From IMG/VR virus record IMGVR_UViG_3300025648_000015, positions 1 through 64,000 of that record: a stretch of DNA of 64,000 bases; one strand, written 5' to 3'. Position 1 is the stretch's first letter; the number at the start of each line of letters is the position of its first letter. Under the pieces are notes generated by a model. It searched no databases and had not been told where the DNA came from. It saw only the letters and a program-made list of their open reading frames with translations. Shown in pieces: positions 26,298 to 64,000 of this stretch. The position numbers and the translations under genes were made by a program. The stretch comes from a virus.

Positions 26298-27425
26298 ATG
26301 CCATTATTCTCATCGTTAAGTGACCTTGCCGCTCGTGCTTATGGACTCCTATCAGGATCTTTAGCACCTATTAGCGACCTGTTTGCAAGAACAACATCAG
26401 GATCATTAGGAACAGCAACATCAGGACAACTTTGGGTTGCACAAACTGGTGTATGGTATGCAACGAGCGGATCAGCTACCACATCAACAGCAGCTAGTTC
26501 TTACCCATTAGCTACAATACCTTACAAAGCTAGTGCAACAATGACGTTGAAGAGTGCTTCAAACGGTACTGGAATTGCTTTTTGGTGGACAAGTACTGGT
26601 AACTGGTGGGCAGTTGTTAACAATGCTTACTCACAAAATAACATAACAAGCTATACCTGTACTGGTGGATATCCTTGCACAGGTTATACATGCGCAGGCT
26701 ATGGACCAGTGTGTCAAAGCTATTACACTGTTTGTACAGGTTATGGTTACAGCAGTGCTTATGGTGATCCAAATGCTAAGGGAGCAACTACAACGTTGCC
26801 TAAGCGAAAGCGTCGTACAAAAGAAGATTCACCAAATACTCGACCCATTGATGTTCCAAAGCCGCAAAACCTTAGTTACGCACCAATTCCACCACCATTC
26901 TTCCCACCCTTCTTTCCGCCTTTCTTCCCACCCTTTTTCCCACCATTCTTTCCACCTTTCTTTCCTCCATTCTTTCCACCGTTCTTTCCTCCGTTCTTTC
27001 CACCGTATTTCCCACCGTGCATAAGTTATGGATTAGCTTGTGGAGGATACGCTACAGGATGTACATCATATTCTTGCTCTTCTTATGGTGCTTGCGCTGG
27101 ATACACAGCCAACTACACAACACAGTACTATAACCAGCTAAGCTTGCTACAATCTGTAGGTGGTACAATCACTACAATTGCAACAGGAGTTCTACAAGGG
27201 CCTTCAAATAGCACAACAGCTCAGATTAACTCTATCCAAATCGTTACCACTAATAGCAACATTACAGCAACTGCCTTTAGTGATTCTGCATTGGTAACAT
27301 CTCTGGGAACTTTGTCTAGCAATCAGACTGCTCCAACTGGTAATGTTAGTGTTGGTATTATTGATTCACCGGTTGGCGGAAGTGCCACCCAAGGTAGTAC
27401 TGTAGGACCATTTACAGCGTTATAA
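26298..27425 (+). CDS. Putative fibre-tip/receptor-binding protein with mirrored Cys ladder and (PPFF)9 insert
   Basis: Beta-rich N- and C-terminal halves interrupted by a 10-Cys, KRKRR and PPFF insert; directly after the fibre gene. Confidence 0.6.
   Translation: MPLFSSLSDLAARAYGLLSGSLAPISDLFARTTSGSLGTATSGQLWVAQTGVWYATSGSATTSTAASSYPLATIPYKASATMTLKSASNGTGIAFWWTSTGNWWAVVNNAYSQNNITSYTCTGGYPCTGYTCAGYGPVCQSYYTVCTGYGYSSAYGDPNAKGATTTLPKRKRRTKEDSPNTRPIDVPKPQNLSYAPIPPPFFPPFFPPFFPPFFPPFFPPFFPPFFPPFFPPFFPPYFPPCISYGLACGGYATGCTSYSCSSYGACAGYTANYTTQYYNQLSLLQSVGGTITTIATGVLQGPSNSTTAQINSIQIVTTNSNITATAFSDSALVTSLGTLSSNQTAPTGNVSVGIIDSPVGGSATQGSTVGPFTAL
26892..27011 (+). repeat. Coding tandem repeat: 9 x PPFF + PPYF (12-bp units)
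   Basis: All ten 12-bp units differ at the DNA level; the nine PPFF units differ only at synonymous positions. Confidence 0.95.
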
Positions 27426-27441
27426 TTAATAGAAAGAGACC

Positions 27442-27681
27442 ATGACAAACAAAGAAGAAAACCTAAATAATACGCCTCCTATGTATCGGATTGCTTTTAT
27501 TCTTGATGGTTTTGTACAAGAAGTAATTGAATGCTCAGAGAGATTTGCAGCTTTATTACTAAGTAAGCCAATAGCAAGAAACATAACAGGACTTGACATA
27601 CCGGTAGGATTTCAGTATGATGTAGCTACCGATACTTTCACTGATTTTGATGGTGAAAGCCTAGAAAATAATAGGAGTTAA
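27442..27681 (+). CDS. Small fibre-associated protein, paralog 1
   Basis: RIAFILDG.V...C..R.AA...S.P...IT motif shared with the next ORF. Confidence 0.7.
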   Translation: MTNKEENLNNTPPMYRIAFILDGFVQEVIECSERFAALLLSKPIARNITGLDIPVGFQYDVATDTFTDFDGESLENNRS

Positions 27682-27682
27682 T

Positions 27683-27916
27683 ATGGCAATTCCAATCCCA
27701 GAAGATCCAATGATAGCTATCAATACTACTAACCGTTTGGCATTTATCCTTGATGGTCAAGTAGTTCATGTTCAAAGTTGCAGTGCTAGAAATGCAGCAA
27801 TTATGACAAGCCAACCAATAGTAATTGATATTACAGATCATGAACGCGGCGCTTTTATCCAAGTTGGTCTTGGTTACGATGAAGAAGCCGGTGAATTTGC
27901 GAGTGAATACCGTTAA
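27683..27916 (+). CDS. Small fibre-associated protein, paralog 2
   Basis: RLAFILDGQV...CSARNAAIMTSQP; AGGAG RBS. Confidence 0.7.
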   Translation: MAIPIPEDPMIAINTTNRLAFILDGQVVHVQSCSARNAAIMTSQPIVIDITDHERGAFIQVGLGYDEEAGEFASEYR

Positions 27917-27918
27917 AA

Positions 27919-28239
27919 ATGAACGGACAACCAAAGCAAACGCCTTGGGAATTATATTTAGAAAATCTAAAGAATACTTCCGAAGAAACATCTGAACAAC
28001 GCCCAGCTAGACCATGGGATCTATTCAATAAAAAAATTGGTAGAGTAGAAGACGAATTAGCTAGTGAACGCCTTGCAATTTGCAAAGATTGTCCACGCAT
28101 TCGTAAGTCATCCATGCTATGTAAAGAATGTGGTTGCTTTATGCCTGGAAAAGTAAAATTACCTAATGCATTCTGTCCAATAGGTAAATGGCAAGCCGTT
28201 GAACAAGAACTAGAGGTTAATGAGGAAGACGAAGAGTAA
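27919..28239 (+). CDS. Cys-rich small protein (RxxxCxxC...CxxCGC...CPxxKW)
   Basis: RLAICKDC, CKECGCFM, CPIGKW; probable metal binder. Confidence 0.75.
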   Translation: MNGQPKQTPWELYLENLKNTSEETSEQRPARPWDLFNKKIGRVEDELASERLAICKDCPRIRKSSMLCKECGCFMPGKVKLPNAFCPIGKWQAVEQELEVNEEDEE

Positions 28240-28919
28240 TGTCGCGTCAAATCATAAAATACGAAAGTCGTAATGGTTTTATAGATCACATGAGGCCTAT
28301 GCTTTCCGTTGTACCTGATTGGTACAAAAAAACAAAAAGATGGGTAACTGACGAAAATGGTCAAGAATGGCCTGGAGTTAAACATTGCATCCCATTCCTT
28401 GAAAGCCTTACGCTCGGTTACACCATAGTTCTTGAAGAAAGTGTATATGTTCAAAGAACAGAAAACGGTGTAATTATACGTTATAATAATCCAAAAGAAC
28501 CTGTCGTTAACAATAGGCCAAGTGCAGTAACTGATCCATCACCAGTCCCAGAGGGATATGAAGATGAACATTTTATTTGGTTTGCTAACATAACTGTAAG
28601 ACCTCCTGATGGTTATTCATTACTTTACACACACCCATTGAATCGTTGGGATCTACCATTCTTAACAAGCAGTGCGGTGGTAGACGATTATGTAATGCCC
28701 GGTGCTAACATGTCTTTTTTTATTAAAAAAGGTTTTGAAGGTGAAATACCTAAAGGCACCCCTATAGCTCAAGTGATACCATTTAAAAGAGAAGAATGGG
28801 TAGCTAAATCTACAAAAGGTCTTTGGGACATAGCTGATACTACTGTGAAAGCTCCTATATCTGAGTTGTTGAATGGTCATTATAGAAAAAACTTCTGGAA
28901 GAAGAAGGTGTATAAATAA
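28239..28919 (+). CDS. dUTPase-like-fold protein (DUF6065-like), paralog 1
   Basis: KHCIPFLES..GY, PDGYSLLYTHPLNR, IPKGTPIAQVIPFKREEW. Confidence 0.6.
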   Translation: MSRQIIKYESRNGFIDHMRPMLSVVPDWYKKTKRWVTDENGQEWPGVKHCIPFLESLTLGYTIVLEESVYVQRTENGVIIRYNNPKEPVVNNRPSAVTDPSPVPEGYEDEHFIWFANITVRPPDGYSLLYTHPLNRWDLPFLTSSAVVDDYVMPGANMSFFIKKGFEGEIPKGTPIAQVIPFKREEWVAKSTKGLWDIADTTVKAPISELLNGHYRKNFWKKKVYK

Positions 28920-29632
28920 TGTTTAAAAAGAATAATAAAAACGTACTTCATTATGAAGGCTCCCCAACCGTAGAAAAAAAGGGTATAGGAGCTATGGTTG
29001 AAATCGTACCTGATTGGTATAAAAAAACACCAAAGTTTTTAGATAATAAAGATCCAAATAACAATATGCCTGCTATGGGTCTTAAGATGTGTATACCATT
29101 CTTAGATGCTATGACAACTGGATTTTATATGTCTTTGCCACAAGAAGTTTATGTAGAGCAAACAGAGAATGGACCATCTATCCGTTGCAAACAACAACCA
29201 ATGCCAATTAGCAATAGACCTCCAATGACTACAGACCCAATGCCATCGCCAGCTGGTCATGATGAAGAGCATTTTATTTGGCAAACTCAGTATGCTTTCC
29301 ACCTTCCTGAAGGATATAGTGCAATTCTGACACACCCATTTAATAGGTTTGAACTACCATTTATAACATTTACTGGTATTGTAGACGGTGACTTTTTTAT
29401 GCATGGCGGCAATATACCTTTTAGTATTAAAAAAGGCTTTGAAGGAGTTATCCCTAAAGGTACTCCAATACTGCAAATTATACCATTCAAAAGAGAAGAC
29501 TGGGTAGCTAAAAAGAAAAAAGGAGTATGGAAAAGAAGCATGGAAAACCATCCCGAAAGAAGCTATGATTATCAAGTTGGTTGGTATAGAAAAAATATAT
29601 GGCGTAAAAAAACTTATAAGGTAGAAAGTTAA
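28919..29632 (+). CDS. dUTPase-like-fold protein (DUF6065-like), paralog 2
   Basis: KMCIPFLDA..GF, PEGYSAILTHPFNR, IPKGTPILQIIPFKREDW; clearly homologous to the preceding ORF. Confidence 0.6.
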   Translation: MFKKNNKNVLHYEGSPTVEKKGIGAMVEIVPDWYKKTPKFLDNKDPNNNMPAMGLKMCIPFLDAMTTGFYMSLPQEVYVEQTENGPSIRCKQQPMPISNRPPMTTDPMPSPAGHDEEHFIWQTQYAFHLPEGYSAILTHPFNRFELPFITFTGIVDGDFFMHGGNIPFSIKKGFEGVIPKGTPILQIIPFKREDWVAKKKKGVWKRSMENHPERSYDYQVGWYRKNIWRKKTYKVES

Positions 29633-29904
29633 TGTTTAAGAAAAACAAAATATATAATGAAAAGCGTCGTTGGAAAACAATGGTAATCCCTAAGAACGAT
29701 GAGAACCAAACAAGGTACCTTCGTTTTACGGAATCACGCACTGCAACAAGACTGTTCATAGAAAAAGACAAGAATTACAAATTTTATGTTGTCTCTAGAG
29801 GAACTAACCCAGGTAAAGTAAAAGTAGTCGGAATTGCAACAGACATAAAGAGTGCTATCACATTATCTAACCTTGAATTGGAAAAAATCAATAAAGGTGA
29901 ATAA
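29632..29904 (+). CDS. Basic hypothetical protein
   Basis: 90-aa ORF, TAATG-coupled on both sides. Confidence 0.6.
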   Translation: MFKKNKIYNEKRRWKTMVIPKNDENQTRYLRFTESRTATRLFIEKDKNYKFYVVSRGTNPGKVKVVGIATDIKSAITLSNLELEKINKGE

Positions 29905-30608
29905 TGATTTATTCACCTGATAATAACTTTTTATTGTTAAAAAATTATAAAGTTGGTGGGAGCTCATTAGAAATAGCGTTGACCAATATAGTTCCAGAAA
30001 ATGCTACTTGCACAGAACTTAAACCTTCAGAGTATGGTCATATGCCAAGAAACCATATATATGATAATATTGAACTAGAAAACCATGCTTCATATTATGA
30101 TATATGTGATATATTCGGTGAAGAAAAAATAAATAATACAATTTCTGTTGTCTTTGTAAGACACCCATATGAGATTGTAGCTTCATGGTATTTTCATAAA
30201 ATGAAAGAATATTGGGGAGAAAAAACCAATGATAATGCTGACCCATTTGAATATGGTGGCGGTTATGACTGGGATGCGTTATCTCTAAAACAAAAAGATT
30301 ATTTAAATAAAATGTTTTTCTATGGAAAAGAAACAGATTTTCGTTCTATTAATAGTACAAAATGGATATATGCACCAAATGGTGAAATACTAGTTGATCA
30401 TGTTCTACGATATGAGAATGGAATAGAAAACGAAATAAATAAAATTTTACCAATGGTTGGGCTGCCAAAGATTACAATACCTTACAAAGCAAAAAGCAAA
30501 TACAAACCACAACATATTACCTATAAAAATATGTTTGGCAAACAAGAACTTGAAACTATACAAAAAGAATGGTCTTGGGAATTTGAAATCTTTGGTTATG
30601 AGCCTTAA
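29904..30608 (+). CDS. Sulfotransferase family protein (PAPS-dependent)
   Basis: 5'-PSB-like KVGGSS and 3'-PB-like VRHPYEIVASWY; C-terminal E..FGY ending typical of Sulfotransfer_2 proteins. Confidence 0.7.
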   Translation: MIYSPDNNFLLLKNYKVGGSSLEIALTNIVPENATCTELKPSEYGHMPRNHIYDNIELENHASYYDICDIFGEEKINNTISVVFVRHPYEIVASWYFHKMKEYWGEKTNDNADPFEYGGGYDWDALSLKQKDYLNKMFFYGKETDFRSINSTKWIYAPNGEILVDHVLRYENGIENEINKILPMVGLPKITIPYKAKSKYKPQHITYKNMFGKQELETIQKEWSWEFEIFGYEP

Positions 30609-31184
30609 ATGACACTAACTAAGGTTTGGAGCAAATACAATAATCCATTTAATTTTATTAACAAAGGCAACGTAGACGTTGGTAAAATTGCGGATTATTT
30701 GTTGAGCAAGAATGAAGATAAATACTTTGATGAACGGTTAAATATAATCCACCATCAACATGGTAAAATTCTAATAGTGCAAGATTACCCCAGGAATTGG
30801 TTCTATCCGGCACCTTTCACGCCAGAATTTGAATGTAAAGATAAAGAACTTTGGGCATTAACTAAACCAATAATCGATAAATTAGAAAAAGACTGCGATG
30901 GTAAAGCAGCTAAAATATTTTATTTCTTATTGCCAGCTGGAACCAATATCTATATTCATATGGATCTTGGACAATATTTTAGTGCTGTACATAGACATCA
31001 AATACCGATAATAACTAATCCTCAATGTGAAACATGGGTTGATGGCGAAACTATAAACATGAAGCCAGGGGAAATCTGGGAGATAAATAATGTTAAACGC
31101 CATGCAGTTGATAACAATGGAACAACACCAAGGATTAATTTAGTTGTGGACATAATGCCTATGTGGGCTATAGAATCAAAATAG
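30609..31184 (+). CDS. Aspartyl/asparaginyl beta-hydroxylase-like 2OG-Fe(II) oxygenase
   Basis: IYIHMD, RHQIPIITNP, GEIWEINN..RHAVDN...PRINLVVD. Confidence 0.85.
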   Translation: MTLTKVWSKYNNPFNFINKGNVDVGKIADYLLSKNEDKYFDERLNIIHHQHGKILIVQDYPRNWFYPAPFTPEFECKDKELWALTKPIIDKLEKDCDGKAAKIFYFLLPAGTNIYIHMDLGQYFSAVHRHQIPIITNPQCETWVDGETINMKPGEIWEINNVKRHAVDNNGTTPRINLVVDIMPMWAIESK

Positions 31185-31194
31185 GAGACAAAAT

Positions 31195-31890
31195 ATGCTT
31201 AGAGAACAATTTGAATTGCCTTTAAATCAAAAAGCATATGATGACGGCTTTTACGAGTTTCGTGGATTGCAAATAGCCATTGGTGAGGGTGTTTATGCAG
31301 AGGCTTATGGAATTGATGTGTTTTTTGAGAACATGTTACTTTTTGTAAAAGAAAAGATTAATTCATTAGAAGGCCTTACCATAATAGACATGTGTGCTGG
31401 ATCAGGCATGCTCGGCATAGCAATGGCAATAGAATTCCCCAATTCAGTAATTTATGGTGTAGAGAAATATGAAAAGCCATTTTTTTGGACTACAAAGAAT
31501 GCAGATGGTTTTAAAGAGCAAATAAATAAAAGCAATTCTAAATTCATTCCAGTGATGTGTAGTGCTCTTGATTCAATTGATAATCTTAAACATCTTCATG
31601 GTCAGGTCGATTTTATTCTTGCAGGTTATCCATGCATACCCATCCCAGATGACCTTTCAAAAGTGGATACTCTCCCTTACGATCTAACATCAGTAGCTGG
31701 TGGCGAAGACGGGTTAGATGTTATAAAAGAAATTTTAACCGCATCATCTATTCTTCTAAAAAAAGGTGGAATTTTAGTAACAACTACTCCAGTAAGAATG
31801 TTTAAACATGTAGAACCATTGCTTGATGACTCAGTGTGGAGCGAAACATTTGAATCACCTCTTGAGTTCATGGTTACAGTTAAAAAATAA
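31195..31890 (+). CDS. HemK/PrmC-like SAM-dependent methyltransferase (divergent)
   Basis: IDMCAGSG motif I and AGGEDGLDVIKEIL. The canonical NPPY is replaced by GYPC. Confidence 0.75.
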   Translation: MLREQFELPLNQKAYDDGFYEFRGLQIAIGEGVYAEAYGIDVFFENMLLFVKEKINSLEGLTIIDMCAGSGMLGIAMAIEFPNSVIYGVEKYEKPFFWTTKNADGFKEQINKSNSKFIPVMCSALDSIDNLKHLHGQVDFILAGYPCIPIPDDLSKVDTLPYDLTSVAGGEDGLDVIKEILTASSILLKKGGILVTTTPVRMFKHVEPLLDDSVWSETFESPLEFMVTVKK

Positions 31891-31900
31891 AAGGTAAATC

Positions 31901-32482
31901 ATGGATGAAATAAAAAGAGAAATATTAGCACCAGGCATCATAAGCTATAGCAATGTAGGAGCAAATATTTCTAATATGGTTCCTGAATGGGAAGAGCATG
32001 TTAAAAATGGTTCTTTAAATTGGGCTCCACATTCTTATGTTGGAGAAAACATAAATGTTCCAGAAGTTAGAAAAGTAAAGCTTATGGGTATTTCCAATGA
32101 TGGTATAAACGAAATAATAGATAGTATAAGAGAACATTTTGATAATGCTTATAAAGCATACGTAGACGATTATTGTGAAAGGTATCGTACCAATACTATT
32201 GGATCTGATGCATACCAAATTCTAAAGTATGAAATAGGTCATCATTATAAAGCACATACTGATTGGGATCGTGGTGAGTGGTTTGAAAAAAGAACTTTTT
32301 CTTTAACACATTATCTTAACGATGATTACGAGGGTGGAGAAATTAATTATGTTGAATTTGGTTTAAAAATTAAACCAAAGAAGGGGCAATTGATTATTTT
32401 CCCTGCACACTTCCCTTATGCACACCAAGTAGAACCAGTTATCAGTGGAGTGCGCTGGGCAATAACAAAATTCTACCACTAA
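31901..32482 (+). CDS. Prolyl-4-hydroxylase-like 2OG-Fe(II) oxygenase
   Basis: YKAHTD, YLNDDYEGGE, IFPA, HQVEPVISGVRW (HxD...H triad plus 2OG-binding Arg). Confidence 0.85.
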   Translation: MDEIKREILAPGIISYSNVGANISNMVPEWEEHVKNGSLNWAPHSYVGENINVPEVRKVKLMGISNDGINEIIDSIREHFDNAYKAYVDDYCERYRTNTIGSDAYQILKYEIGHHYKAHTDWDRGEWFEKRTFSLTHYLNDDYEGGEINYVEFGLKIKPKKGQLIIFPAHFPYAHQVEPVISGVRWAITKFYH

Positions 32483-32901
32483 TGATTATCCAGATTATTG
32501 GGCTTCCTGGATCAGGTAAGACCGCCCTAGCAAATGGTTTAAAAGAAAAAATACCTGTAATTCATTTAAATGCTGATGAGGTTAGGGCAACAATCAATTC
32601 AGATCTTGGGTTCTCAAACGATGACAGGGTTGAACAAGCACGCAGGCTTGGTGAGATGGCAAGACTTTTAGAACGCCAAGGTCATAACATAATTGTGGAT
32701 TTTGTTTGCCCTACGGAAGAGGCAAGAGAGGCTTTTGGCAAACCAGACATTCTTATCTGGATGGACCGTATCAAAAAAAGCCGTTTTGAGGACACCAATA
32801 CCCTTTGGCAAGACCCAATAAATTACGTTGATTTTATAATCAAAAATGGCTTAACCGTTGAACAAGAAGTAGATTGCATCATTAGTAAATACGGCCTTTA
32901 G
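32482..32901 (+). CDS. cysC: Adenylyl-sulfate (APS) kinase-like P-loop protein
   Basis: GLPGSGKT, NADEVR, LGFSNDDRVEQARR. Shorter than canonical CysC. Confidence 0.65.
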   Translation: MIIQIIGLPGSGKTALANGLKEKIPVIHLNADEVRATINSDLGFSNDDRVEQARRLGEMARLLERQGHNIIVDFVCPTEEAREAFGKPDILIWMDRIKKSRFEDTNTLWQDPINYVDFIIKNGLTVEQEVDCIISKYGL

Positions 32902-33009: not shown

Positions 33010-35229
33010 ATGGCCAATAAAAAACCCAAGAATAATATTACTAGAGGGTACCGTTCAACCAATAATAAGGTCATTGAAGGTTGGACTGGTGGTGAGGGTG
33101 GACCACACCCGCCAGAATATAGTAGTAATTATAAGACTATTCTATTTAGTTATTTTGCCACGAACAAAAATGGTAAAGTACCAGAAGGTTGGAGAGGTGG
33201 TCAAGGTCCACATGTCCCACCACCTTATGTAGGACCTAAGAGTAGCTTTACTAGAGCATTCTATTCACCCAATACTGAAGCGTATGAGCTTGGTTGGAGA
33301 GGTGGCTATGGATTCCAAAAACACCTTGATTACTTTAAGAATGCCATCGCTTTGGCCACAATATTGGTTAATAACCAGTCAAAAATCGGTAGAATTAAAC
33401 AAGCTTCATCTACGTCTACAAATTTAGCAAAAACCTCAAAAAGTTATATCCAATTAAGATTTGCCATTGCTCTACAAACCTCAGCAATTGTTACTAGATA
33501 CATTAAGTCAAAACTTAAATCTGCAATAGTTAATTATGTTGGTGTTATAAAGAATAGCAAGCGTTTTACAGGTATTCGTCGTGCTACCGCTAATAGCATT
33601 GGTTACGCAAAAGTTACTAAAATCACAAGACATTTTAGAGTTTCTATAGTTAATCTTGTAAACTTTGCATTCGAAGGCCGCATCGATCGATTCTTTAGAA
33701 AAGCGATTGCTGCCTATACACAATCAGTAATTATTGTCAAACGATCTAGATTCACCCGTACTGCTAAGGCATTGCAAACCTATTTAGCAACTAGTTTAAA
33801 GCCATTTGATCAATATTACAGAAGTGCGATCGCTACTTCAACCAGACTAGTAAATTCTAGTAAAACTTTTAATAGGTTTAGAAAAAGCACTATAACAAGT
33901 ATAAACATAGCAAATAGCTATAAAACAATCAAACGTATAAAACAAGCATTAGCTGAATCCACGTTCTTGGTTCGTAATATAAAATCCTACAATAATTTTA
34001 AAAGAGCGTTTGCCACCAGAGTTTCGCTTATTACATCTAAAAATTCTAACATTAGAAGCAAATTAGTTACCGTTACTAGGGTATCTCTTGTAAAGAGTAG
34101 CAGGACATATAATGCCAGAGTCCGTGCTATAGCTATCAATATTGTCAAAACTATTAAAATTGGTAGGTTTATAAGAACCGGTTCAGCTAATGCTATCAAC
34201 ATAGCAAATTCTTATAGAATTAATGTTCTTTTTAAAAAAGCCATTTCTATGGTTATCAACATAGCACGAGATGGAAAGATCGATCGATTCTACCGTTATG
34301 CCATAGCTAGAACAACCAATTTGGTTACCACTACTAAACAATCTAGATTTATTAGAGTAGCTAAATCAACCCAAGTAGGCATTACCATTGCAACAAGAAT
34401 TGTCGTAGCTAGACGCCTCGCAACAGCTAACCGTGCAATGCTCGTTAAAGTCAGCAAAAACTATGGCAAGAACATAAAAGTTATATTCACAGGGTTAACC
34501 AAAAATAACAAATTATTTAGATTCACAAGAAGAGCAACGGCAGCAGTCATTAATCTTGCTACTACCAGGAAATTTTCTAGGTTCATTAGAGTTGCTAAAG
34601 TAACTGCAACTAATATTGCATTCGATGGAAAAATTGATCAATTCTATCGTTATGCGATTGCTAGAACTACAGGGCTTATTAAAACCACTAAATTATCTAG
34701 GTTCAATAGGAATGCCAACGCTAATAGAATAAACCTTGCTAGAACCAATAAACGCCGTGCTACCTATATCAAGACTCTATCCACTAATTTGAGTTTTAAT
34801 ATCAAATCCCATGCATACCGTAAAATTGCCAAGAATATTGTTATATTCATTGGTAAAGTTGTAAGTGGTGGAAAAGTTACACATAAGAATGCTTCAGTAT
34901 TGCAGAGCGTATCAGCTACTGTAACCAAGGCAAACAACCGTAAAAAATACGCCACTGCCACGGTTAGCTATGAAATTGGTACTACCAAGGGTAGAACTTA
35001 TCTTAGAAGAGCAATTGCCACAACAGTCGGATTGGTTCGCTATGGACTCAGCCTAGTAATGAATGTAAGATCTATAGAATCTGCCAAGGTTGAGCCAGTC
35101 AACGAGGTCAATTTCTATGTTACACCTAACAACCCAGACGTTGTTGGGGAGTACACATCTGAAAATGACCAGCCTGGTGACTATTCAGAGCCTGTGAATA
35201 ACCTTGGTGAAGATGTAGTACCTACTTAA
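33010..35229 (+). CDS. Extremely basic repeat protein
   Basis: Three GW(T/R)GG repeats, then about 570 aa of Arg/Lys/Thr/Ala-rich ~20-aa repeats, then an acidic C-terminus. Confidence 0.7.
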   Translation: MANKKPKNNITRGYRSTNNKVIEGWTGGEGGPHPPEYSSNYKTILFSYFATNKNGKVPEGWRGGQGPHVPPPYVGPKSSFTRAFYSPNTEAYELGWRGGYGFQKHLDYFKNAIALATILVNNQSKIGRIKQASSTSTNLAKTSKSYIQLRFAIALQTSAIVTRYIKSKLKSAIVNYVGVIKNSKRFTGIRRATANSIGYAKVTKITRHFRVSIVNLVNFAFEGRIDRFFRKAIAAYTQSVIIVKRSRFTRTAKALQTYLATSLKPFDQYYRSAIATSTRLVNSSKTFNRFRKSTITSINIANSYKTIKRIKQALAESTFLVRNIKSYNNFKRAFATRVSLITSKNSNIRSKLVTVTRVSLVKSSRTYNARVRAIAINIVKTIKIGRFIRTGSANAINIANSYRINVLFKKAISMVINIARDGKIDRFYRYAIARTTNLVTTTKQSRFIRVAKSTQVGITIATRIVVARRLATANRAMLVKVSKNYGKNIKVIFTGLTKNNKLFRFTRRATAAVINLATTRKFSRFIRVAKVTATNIAFDGKIDQFYRYAIARTTGLIKTTKLSRFNRNANANRINLARTNKRRATYIKTLSTNLSFNIKSHAYRKIAKNIVIFIGKVVSGGKVTHKNASVLQSVSATVTKANNRKKYATATVSYEIGTTKGRTYLRRAIATTVGLVRYGLSLVMNVRSIESAKVEPVNEVNFYVTPNNPDVVGEYTSENDQPGDYSEPVNNLGEDVVPT

Positions 35230-63616: not shown

Positions 63617-64000
63617 ATGGATACTAAAATTGATTATAAATGGCAAAAAGAGTCTGCCTGTAAAGGAATGGATATTGAGTTGTTCTATCCATCGCATGGT
63701 AAAGCTCCATCAAAACAACTATCAGACAAATGCGATGGTTGTCCAGTATCCACACAATGCCTTGATCATGCACTCAAATATGAAGAATATGGGCATTGGG
63801 CTAATACAGGACCAACTGAACGTAGAGAATTACGTAATAAACTTGGCATAGAATTGGTTAATATTAATATTGCGTTTCTAAATAATCAATATATTGAAGA
63901 AGAAGAAAAAGTTGAATCTACTTCTATAAAAATTAAAGGACGTGGTCGTAGACCAGCAGATTGTGGGACACGTTCTGGTTATGGTGCACACAGGCGAAAA
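63617..64000 (+). CDS. whiB: WhiB-family Fe-S transcription factor (3'-truncated; missed by the ORF track)
   Basis: MDTKIDYKWQKESACKGMDIELFYP...CDGCPVSTQCLDHAL..EEYGHWANTGPTERR: four Cys and a G-x-W turn; C-terminal GRGRRPADCGTRSGYGAHRRK. Confidence 0.9.
   Translation, partial: MDTKIDYKWQKESACKGMDIELFYPSHGKAPSKQLSDKCDGCPVSTQCLDHALKYEEYGHWANTGPTERRELRNKLGIELVNINIAFLNNQYIEEEEKVESTSIKIKGRGRRPADCGTRSGYGAHRRK

Follow-up and report, generated by a model that had tools for sequence, protein, structure and literature searches.

A predicted sulfation unit and a tip-linked gene set side by side in the late region of a putative actinophage

Bacterial loci that pair a supply of 3'-phosphoadenosine-5'-phosphosulfate (PAPS) with a sulfotransferase include NodPQ with NodH, RaxPQ with RaxST, and the mycobacterial CysDNC with Stf enzymes. 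Phage sulfotransferases are common in metagenomes, and their role in phages "remains unclear" (PMC10580990). The cysC genes of freshwater phages, which are widespread and transcribed, have been read as genes of assimilatory sulfate reduction (Chen and Banfield 2024, PMC10914622). In Mycobacterium phages, capsid and tail-tube subunits are reported to bear glycans on their C-termini (Freeman et al. 2023, PMID 37329881, cited in PMC12619734 and PMC13313380). We found no description in the literature of a phage module joining a sulfotransferase, an adenosine 5'-phosphosulfate (APS) kinase and a hydroxylase, and no report of a sulfated, hydroxylated virion fibre for any phage. Here we analyze an eleven-gene block at positions 27442-32901 of the IMG/VR virus record IMGVR_UViG_3300025648_000015. 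The window, the whole stretch analyzed, is the first 64 kb of this 116-kb record (estimated completeness 79%). The block contains a predicted sulfation unit that is a variant of PAPS-supplied sulfation loci and was not previously described as a phage module in the literature we found. Our leading, still tentative account of the whole block is that two accessory modules lie together in a late operon, a PAPS-dependent O-sulfation unit and a set serving the maturation of the neighboring tip protein.

Eleven plus-strand open reading frames (ORFs) fill the block, with intergenic gaps of -1 to +10 nt. The tight packing described by the first-pass annotation, which was made from the sequence alone, is thus confirmed, and every fold it named was recovered: P4H-like (prolyl 4-hydroxylase-like), AspH-like, sulfotransferase, APS kinase, HemK-like, Cys-rich, and the dUTPase-fold pair. 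A second pair of paralogs, g1 and g2 (47% identity), was missing from it. The tip gene and the genes of the block are as follows.

26298-27425, plus strand: tip protein, 375 aa; candidate acceptor, outside the block as first delimited
27442-27681, plus strand: g1, small protein, 79 aa; paralog of g2; no Pfam or PHROG match
27683-27916, plus strand: g2, small protein, 77 aa; paralog of g1
27919-28239, plus strand: g3, Cys-rich DUF6171-like protein, 106 aa; CxxC...CxxCGC...C
28239-28919, plus strand: g4, dUTPase-fold protein, 226 aa; phrog_7084, E 5e-27
28919-29632, plus strand: g5, dUTPase-fold protein, 237 aa; phrog_7084, E 1e-33; AlphaFold model
29632-29904, plus strand: g6, small protein, 90 aa; no Pfam match
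29904-30608, plus strand: g7, sulfotransferase, 234 aa; Sulfotransfer_2; phrog_3347
30609-31184, plus strand: g8, AspH-like 2-oxoglutarate (2OG)/Fe(II) dioxygenase, 191 aa; Asp_Arg_Hydrox
31195-31890, plus strand: g9, class I S-adenosylmethionine (SAM) methyltransferase, HemK-like, 231 aa; solved match HemK
31901-32482, plus strand: g10, P4H-like 2OG/Fe(II) dioxygenase, 193 aa; 2OG-FeII_Oxy_3; phrog_61
32482-32901, plus strand: g11, trimmed APS kinase, 139 aa; APS_kinase

In the mechanism we propose, g11 would phosphorylate APS to PAPS and g7 would move the sulfate from PAPS to a hydroxyl group. The AspH-like dioxygenase, joined in the window lineage by the P4H-like dioxygenase and the HemK-derived methyltransferase, would prepare or tailor the same acceptor. 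That acceptor would be a macromolecule made late in infection, and the favored candidates belong to the phage itself: its fibre, its tip protein, or glycans added to them by phage glycosyltransferases (GTs). The other module accompanies the Cys/Tyr-rich, hypervariable tip gene and probably has a role in tip maturation.

The sulfotransferase g7 scored 23.8 bits with Pfam Sulfotransfer_2 (PF03567; cut-off 22), in a match spanning profile positions 5-251 of 252. K16, V17, S21, R86, P88 and S94, and also H61, are invariant in 13 homologs sharing 37-80% identity. These residues mark a K16-V-G-G-S/T-S loop and an R86-x-P...S94 segment, which we take to be the canonical 5'-phosphosulfate loop and 3'-phosphate motif, respectively. 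The nearest Atlas clusters are viral Sulfotransfer_2 proteins. A sequence search of solved structures with g7 returned nothing, a pattern scan of GTDB genomes, which has limited sensitivity, revealed no cellular relative, and megablast and tblastn searches of cultured phages with the cassette and the sulfotransferase gave no match. The family is of the carbohydrate type, and its PHROG label is galactose-3-O-sulfotransferase.

The kinase g11 matched APS_kinase (PF01583) with 65.6 bits (cut-off 21.1), though only over profile positions 4-91 of 152. Its motifs GLPGSGKT (7-14), LNAD (29-32), DLGFS (41-45), DRVEQARR (48-55) and VCP (75-77) align to solved APS kinases and show almost no variation among 18 homologs; Asn takes the place of the first Asp of LDGD. 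The AlphaFold model (pLDDT 94) had APS kinases as its ~48 best Foldseek matches (TMq 0.79-0.87, 22-27% identity), and the first kinase of another type appeared at rank 50. The lid is ~30 residues shorter and contains a conserved RFEDTN, which we infer occupies the place of FTGIDxPYE. A complete-domain fold together with a conserved P-loop and APS-site segment points to a trimmed enzyme rather than a fragment, and g11 should make PAPS from APS. We considered a truncated pseudogene and rejected it, as the protein is conserved at 55-98% identity, the fold is complete, and the same short form occurs in another locus (L012). Relatives have the kinase in a 252-256-aa fusion to a ~110-aa HIGH-motif nucleotidyltransferase (GRYQPWHEGH...ISAT; e.g. 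L009:9043-9801 and L135:3129-3899). The fused half is NMNAT-like (E 1.8e-4) and matches CTP_transf_like (E 4.7e-5), and the domain order resembles that of PAPS synthase. A homolog in a different kinase context is ORF238 of Ralstonia phage phiRSL1 (L097:4989-10348), annotated as an APS kinase and 48% identical to g11, which lies directly upstream of annotated hydroxymethylcytosine (HMC) glucosyltransferases and sugar nucleotidyltransferases.

We fetched viral (IMG/VR) loci with four seeds: the dUTPase-fold family, the tip N-terminal domain, the sulfotransferase and the kinase. Among the 42 sulfotransferase-seeded loci, 31 carried the kinase, mostly within ~1 kb, which supports the functional link between these two genes proposed by the first-pass annotation. 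Other recurrent neighbors were the small membrane protein DUF2061 (27/42), WhiB (21/42), a directly adjacent AspH-like gene (19/42), a GT2 gene directly downstream (15/42), a dUTPase-fold gene (14/42) and a P4H-like gene (9/42); the methyltransferase was found in two, the window's near relatives L004 and L005. The 77 kinase-seeded loci included 68 with DUF2061, 20 with an AspH-like gene and 23 with a P4H-like gene; in all 77 the kinase was fused to the nucleotidyltransferase half. From these neighbor counts we conclude that the sulfotransferase relies on the kinase and that the kinase has another use besides. They also divide what had been presented as one cassette: the eleven genes are contiguous here, but they form two separable modules, a tip-linked set (27442-29904) and a sulfation set (29904-32901), that are merely neighbors in this phage. 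An apparent pairing of the short kinase with dUTPase-fold genes comes from a single clade and from loci for which the dUTPase-fold gene was itself the seed.

Searches of the 116-kb record revealed no ATP sulfurylase, PAPS reductase/CysD, cysH, cysN or DUF2061. A PAPS-making kinase beside a PAPS-using enzyme, with no reductive genes, points to sulfotransfer, so PAPS would be made here for that purpose. The lack of PAPS reductase, CysD and ATP sulfurylase also places the kinase outside a sulfate-assimilation set. The first-pass annotation had argued against auxiliary metabolic genes, and as regards assimilation, which is unlikely, this view is supported. It is therefore very improbable that g11 is an ordinary phage cysC boosting host assimilatory sulfate reduction among otherwise unrelated morons, as the reading of freshwater phage cysC and the many kinase loci without a g7-type Sulfotransfer_2 might suggest. 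The record lacks cysH, cysD, cysN and sat, the sulfotransferase seldom occurs without the kinase, and the overlapping genes suggest one unit. In addition, the assimilatory pathway of Nanopelagicales-type cells is incomplete (PMC12817590), and a Nanopelagicales-like host, if the two WhiB genes and ~40% GC of the record indicate one, would lack the complete pathway. Since the sulfotransferase usually occurs with the kinase, often with an AspH-like gene or a GT, and without reductive genes, we redirected the reading towards sulfation of a macromolecule.

Both dioxygenases retain HxD...H and an Arg. The AspH-like g8 matched Asp_Arg_Hydrox (PF05118; 48.2 bits against 22.6, E 1.4e-12), with H117-x-D119, H165 and R175 invariant in eight homologs. 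The P4H-like g10 matched 2OG-FeII_Oxy_3 (PF13640; 63.9 bits against 27, E 2.8e-17), and its best solved match was the P4H of Bacillus anthracis (E 1.6e-7), with H119-x-D121, H175 and R185 aligned. The P4Hs of B. anthracis and chlorella virus PBCV-1 hydroxylate proline-rich repeat peptides. With those enzymes (PDB 3itq and 5hv0; PDB 5c5t) g10 shares the HxD...H motif and the basic 2OG-binding residue, but it aligns over its C-terminal half only, and the PP[FY]F tract of the tip, 4.5 kb upstream of g10, is neither collagen-like nor PAPK-like. A 115-kb phage contig holds five P4H-like matches, probably at least four genes, around its kinase-sulfotransferase-AspH set (L117:4111-16403).

The methyltransferase g9 is more difficult to place. 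Its best solved match was Thermotoga maritima HemK (E 1e-4), with DMCAGSG (65-71) and GGEDGLD (169-175) aligned. It shares the SAM motif and the GGxDGLD segment with PrmC/HemK (PDB 1nv8, 1sg9), yet the substrate-binding NPPY, which contacts the amide nitrogen of the target, is replaced by G-Y-P-C at 144-147; [GS]YPC is kept in L004 and L005, as S-Y-P-C in L005. Pfam MTS scored 15.4 bits against a cut-off of 23, and seven methyltransferase families all remained under their cut-offs. The label HemK-like thus holds for the closest structure but not for the function, since without the NPPY of protein-glutamine and N6-adenine methyltransferases g9 should not be classed as HemK. The gene is confined to the window lineage.

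That P4H, AspH and HemK families act on protein side chains was a premise of the first-pass annotation, and it is only partly safe because free amino acids are also substrates of AspH-family enzymes, and the closest solved relative of g8 is a free L-proline cis-4-hydroxylase. We consider it improbable, however, that the block hydroxylates a free amino acid or metabolite and then sulfates or methylates it as a metabolic or signaling product. The match of g8 to the proline hydroxylase is weak (E 0.005), the sulfotransferase family is chiefly known for glycan acceptors and has GT2 adjacent in 15 of its 42 loci, and the fibre-region position is retained in the window clade. This alternative would accommodate the metabolic neighbors of the set in one phage (AhpC, a CMD-family protein and GMP reductase in L120) and the AspH-like genes that accompany the kinase even where the sulfotransferase is absent. 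The adjacency of AspH-like genes to the sulfotransferase fits the earlier "hydroxylate, then sulfate" scheme: an AspH-like neighbor agrees with hydroxylation preceding O-sulfation, a GT2 neighbor agrees with glycan sulfation, and both could apply, in different phages.

The tip protein upstream of the block consists of conserved N- and C-terminal domains around a hypervariable insert. In the window, the insert comprises two Cys/Tyr/Gly-rich arms, a basic segment and a tract of ten PP[FY]F repeats; across the family, inserts are of low complexity, rich in Cys, Tyr, Gly, Ser and Thr, and differ strongly in sequence between phages. Even the repeat units are wholly different (PPFF, NPYNPC, SPSYPC, GPFYxQVCN), and one 456-aa member contains 51 Cys. 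Relatives of the tip were located at L017:7565-8812, L039:18-1388 (minus strand), L090:6112-7461 and L094:4280-5383. Because broader tip alignments were too divergent, tip-seeded loci were collected with a three-sequence alignment of the N-terminal domain. In six of the seven loci so obtained, excluding near relatives of the window, DUF6171 lies directly behind the tip gene, and the same loci often also carry a g1/g2 homolog and dUTPase-fold genes. The assignment of g3 to DUF6171 falls just below the Pfam cut-off (26.8 bits against 27, E 6.9e-6) and is accompanied by a match to phrog_13558 (E 1.5e-16). Homologs of g1 lie 3' of the tip gene in L017, L051, L065, L080, L081, L134 and L137, and homologs of g2 were found in L012, L136 and L137. 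Homologs of g6 adjoin dUTPase-fold genes in L012 (two copies), L017/L135 and L134.

The PP[FY]F tract is the sole Pro-rich tract among the neighboring structural proteins, and it is confined to the window, L004 and L005, the three phages in which P4H-like and methyltransferase genes also occur. Its length varies among them (40, 47 and 53 prolines), even between tips that share 87% identity elsewhere. In L081, an unrelated locus that has a P4H-like gene, the tip carries GPFY repeats. A specific version of the virion reading is that the phage tailors its own receptor-binding tip: the dioxygenases would hydroxylate the insert or its glycans, g7 and g11 would O-sulfate them, and the DUF6171 and dUTPase-fold proteins would be further maturation factors. 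We regard this version as unlikely. The covariation between P4H-like genes and tip Pro-repeats was not significant (Fisher p = 0.18) and came down to one lineage plus one case.

The paralogs g4 and g5 share 46% identity, and the dUTPase fold that had been called from the sequence alone was borne out by structure prediction. The AlphaFold model of g5 (pLDDT 89) had only dUTPases or dCTP deaminases as fold matches 1-22; the top Foldseek match had E 4.5e-4, and VIA-align gave Z 9.4-5.3 for the 22 dUTPase-fold chains against 4.7 for the first unrelated chain. Neither protein matched the dUTPase Pfam family (PF00692), and a sequence search of solved structures with the family profile returned nothing. 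R100, H139, P140, N142, R143, T182, P183 and Q186 are invariant in the family and D156 nearly so; by eye, GVVDG (D156) and GTPxxQ (Q186) resemble dUTPase motifs III and IV, and motif V was not seen. The family thus shares the fold of trimeric dUTPases and dCTP deaminases, but its members are ~80 residues longer than trimeric dUTPases, have no evident Gly-rich motif V, and occur in arrays beside fibres. Herpesvirus tegument proteins among the fold matches show that a dUTPase fold can be non-enzymatic.

This family is widespread, with at least 596 viral and 325 cellular loci. Two to four copies occur in 33 of 81 analyzed viral loci, and the commonest neighbors are fibre-like proteins, DUF6171 (18 of 79 dUTPase-fold-seeded loci), the tip family, glycosyltransferases and lysozyme. 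Cellular homologs were found on large chromosomal contigs (L140-L217) of Bradyrhizobium, Phenylobacterium and gammaproteobacterial metagenome-assembled genomes, where the sole recurrent neighbor, a convergent TPR protein (24/58 loci), offers no functional hint. We set aside the idea that the paralogs replace the missing ATP sulfurylase, both attacking a nucleotide alpha-phosphate, as only 4-5 of the 79 loci carry sulfation genes.

A modification of nucleotides, nucleotide sugars or DNA-attached sugars by the dUTPase-fold proteins, kinase, methyltransferase and oxygenases is another improbable alternative. It would explain the dUTPase fold with its motif III/IV-like segments, and the record encodes no canonical dUTPase. 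Homologs in haloarchaeal myoviruses (among them Halovirus HSTV-2, L098:6884-7753) lie beside thymidylate synthase and DNA polymerase, and the homologous kinase of phiRSL1 sits among annotated DNA-sugar transferases. The dUTPase-fold genes of aquatic phages, however, lie beside fibres, the tip, DUF6171 and glycosyltransferases rather than replication genes, the oxygenases are P4H- and AspH-type rather than TET/JBP-type, and the block is embedded in a late structural operon.

From the genome features we infer a myovirus of a low-GC actinobacterium. Portal, major capsid, tail sheath and baseplate-type proteins are all encoded in the window, and the capsid protein shares 63-65% identity with its counterparts in cluster C mycobacteriophages and Rhodococcus phage E3. 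A glycosyltransferase cassette (weak GT2-like, GT4, GT17-like) at 64.1-66.8 kb of the record could mean that the phage glycosylates something itself; here a WhiB gene and then three GT-like genes stand at the end of the structural module (window 63617-64000 onward; L016:1618-4827 corresponds to record 63617-66826). Because of its capsid kinship to a group with virion glycans, as reported in the papers citing Freeman 2023, and its own GT cassette, we count these features in favor of a virion acceptor.

The location between fibre genes and further virion genes, noted at first pass, holds. Upstream of the block lie a 1997-aa fibre and the tip; the downstream flank consists of a 739-aa protein, then NlpC/P60-like and FN3 proteins, with tail sheath and baseplate genes farther along. 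The 739-aa protein (window 33010-35229) has no Pfam or PHROG match and shares 97% identity with its counterpart in L004 and 43-54% in L005, while flanking genes share ~90%; in its divergence it resembles a second, rapidly evolving protein of the fibre or receptor-binding type. The reported AT-richness proved moderate: the block has a GC content of 0.351 against 0.410 +/- 0.043 for other genes, with the sulfotransferase gene lowest (0.298), but several baseplate genes are AT-rich to the same degree. A promoter and terminator scan of the block gave signal counts at or below shuffled expectation, which, together with the overlapping or nearly abutting genes, ties the block to the fibre genes. Three arrangements occur in the window clade (the window, L004, L005, L012, L134 and L135), and in each of them the sulfation genes remain in the company of fibre and tip genes: they follow the tip (window, L004, L005), follow it in reshuffled order (L012), or precede the fibre beside a collagen/CBM5_12 protein (L134, L135). 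Further phages have them beside collagen-like or PA14 proteins.

Several observations weigh against a virion acceptor, and in particular against a virion protein. The AspH-sulfotransferase-kinase set is found outside the structural block in most other actinophages, in the vicinity of WhiB, peroxiredoxin, GMP reductase and nuclease genes; in L120, which shows the commonest such arrangement, it has peroxiredoxin, GMP reductase and nuclease genes on one side and a PA14 protein on the other. The virion-tailoring proposal of the first-pass annotation is thus supported by position within the clade and by the co-occurrence of the PP[FY]F tract, but not by these phages. Its suggestion that protein is sulfated is weakened by the carbohydrate-type family of g7 and the frequent GT2 gene downstream, and the g7 score barely exceeds the Pfam cut-off. 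Only 7 of the 77 kinase-seeded loci have a recognizable Sulfotransfer_2 within 10 kb, although the divergent copy in L135 escaped the hidden Markov model derived from the sulfotransferase alignment, so that counts of loci without a sulfotransferase are upper bounds. The window lineage has neither DUF2061 nor the nucleotidyltransferase half, of which no copy exists elsewhere in the record, and thus encodes no evident source of APS. The acceptor could lie on the virion, in the host envelope or elsewhere.

The same observations bear on a rival in which the phage sulfates, hydroxylates or methylates cell-wall glycans or lipids of its host, for example masking receptors so that neither progeny nor competitors adsorb to debris or already infected cells. 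In mycobacteria, PAPS-dependent sulfotransferases act in the synthesis of sulfated envelope lipids. The carbohydrate-type family of g7 and its PHROG label, the membrane protein DUF2061 beside the kinase in 68 of 77 loci, and the location outside structural genes in many actinophages agree with such a role, and the frequent GT2 and Stealth_CR2 neighbors would suit host-envelope glycans equally well. We nevertheless consider it unlikely, though the most serious of the alternatives, for the window-clade genes remain within the fibre region, where they overlap late genes, no signal or membrane segment is evident by eye in the eleven proteins, and both the host and its acceptor are putative. Tailoring of a virion fibre, tip or glycan is therefore favored, with host-envelope modification ranked second.

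If the acceptor is indeed the virion, sulfation and hydroxylation would join glycosylation as means of dressing actinophage particles, and could affect host recognition, stability, and evasion of antibodies or defences. The analysis also defines an APS kinase of minimal size (139 aa), a dUTPase-fold family of wide distribution, and a fast-evolving Cys/Tyr-rich tip family with its escort genes.

Compared with the freshwater phage cysC genes (PMC10914622), g11 is the same kind of gene in a similar setting, WhiB-encoding freshwater-type phages, the 62 cysC genes of that study being possible members of its family. The difference lies in its company, a sulfotransferase and hydroxylases but no cysH, and this company points to sulfotransfer. 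With the glycosylated mycobacteriophages, the phage shares actinophage affinity, transferases of its own and a cluster C-like capsid; the passages citing that work mention no sulfation, hydroxylation or APS kinase, and glycosylation of the virion in our phage is putative. The closest counterparts are the bacterial loci of the NodPQ/NodH, RaxPQ/RaxST and CysDNC/Stf type, which likewise place an APS kinase beside a sulfotransferase with no reductive genes. The block described here is phage-encoded, has its kinase trimmed to 139 aa, and lacks an ATP sulfurylase. Its sulfotransferase belongs to a largely viral branch of Sulfotransfer_2, and an AspH-like dioxygenase is its recurrent partner.

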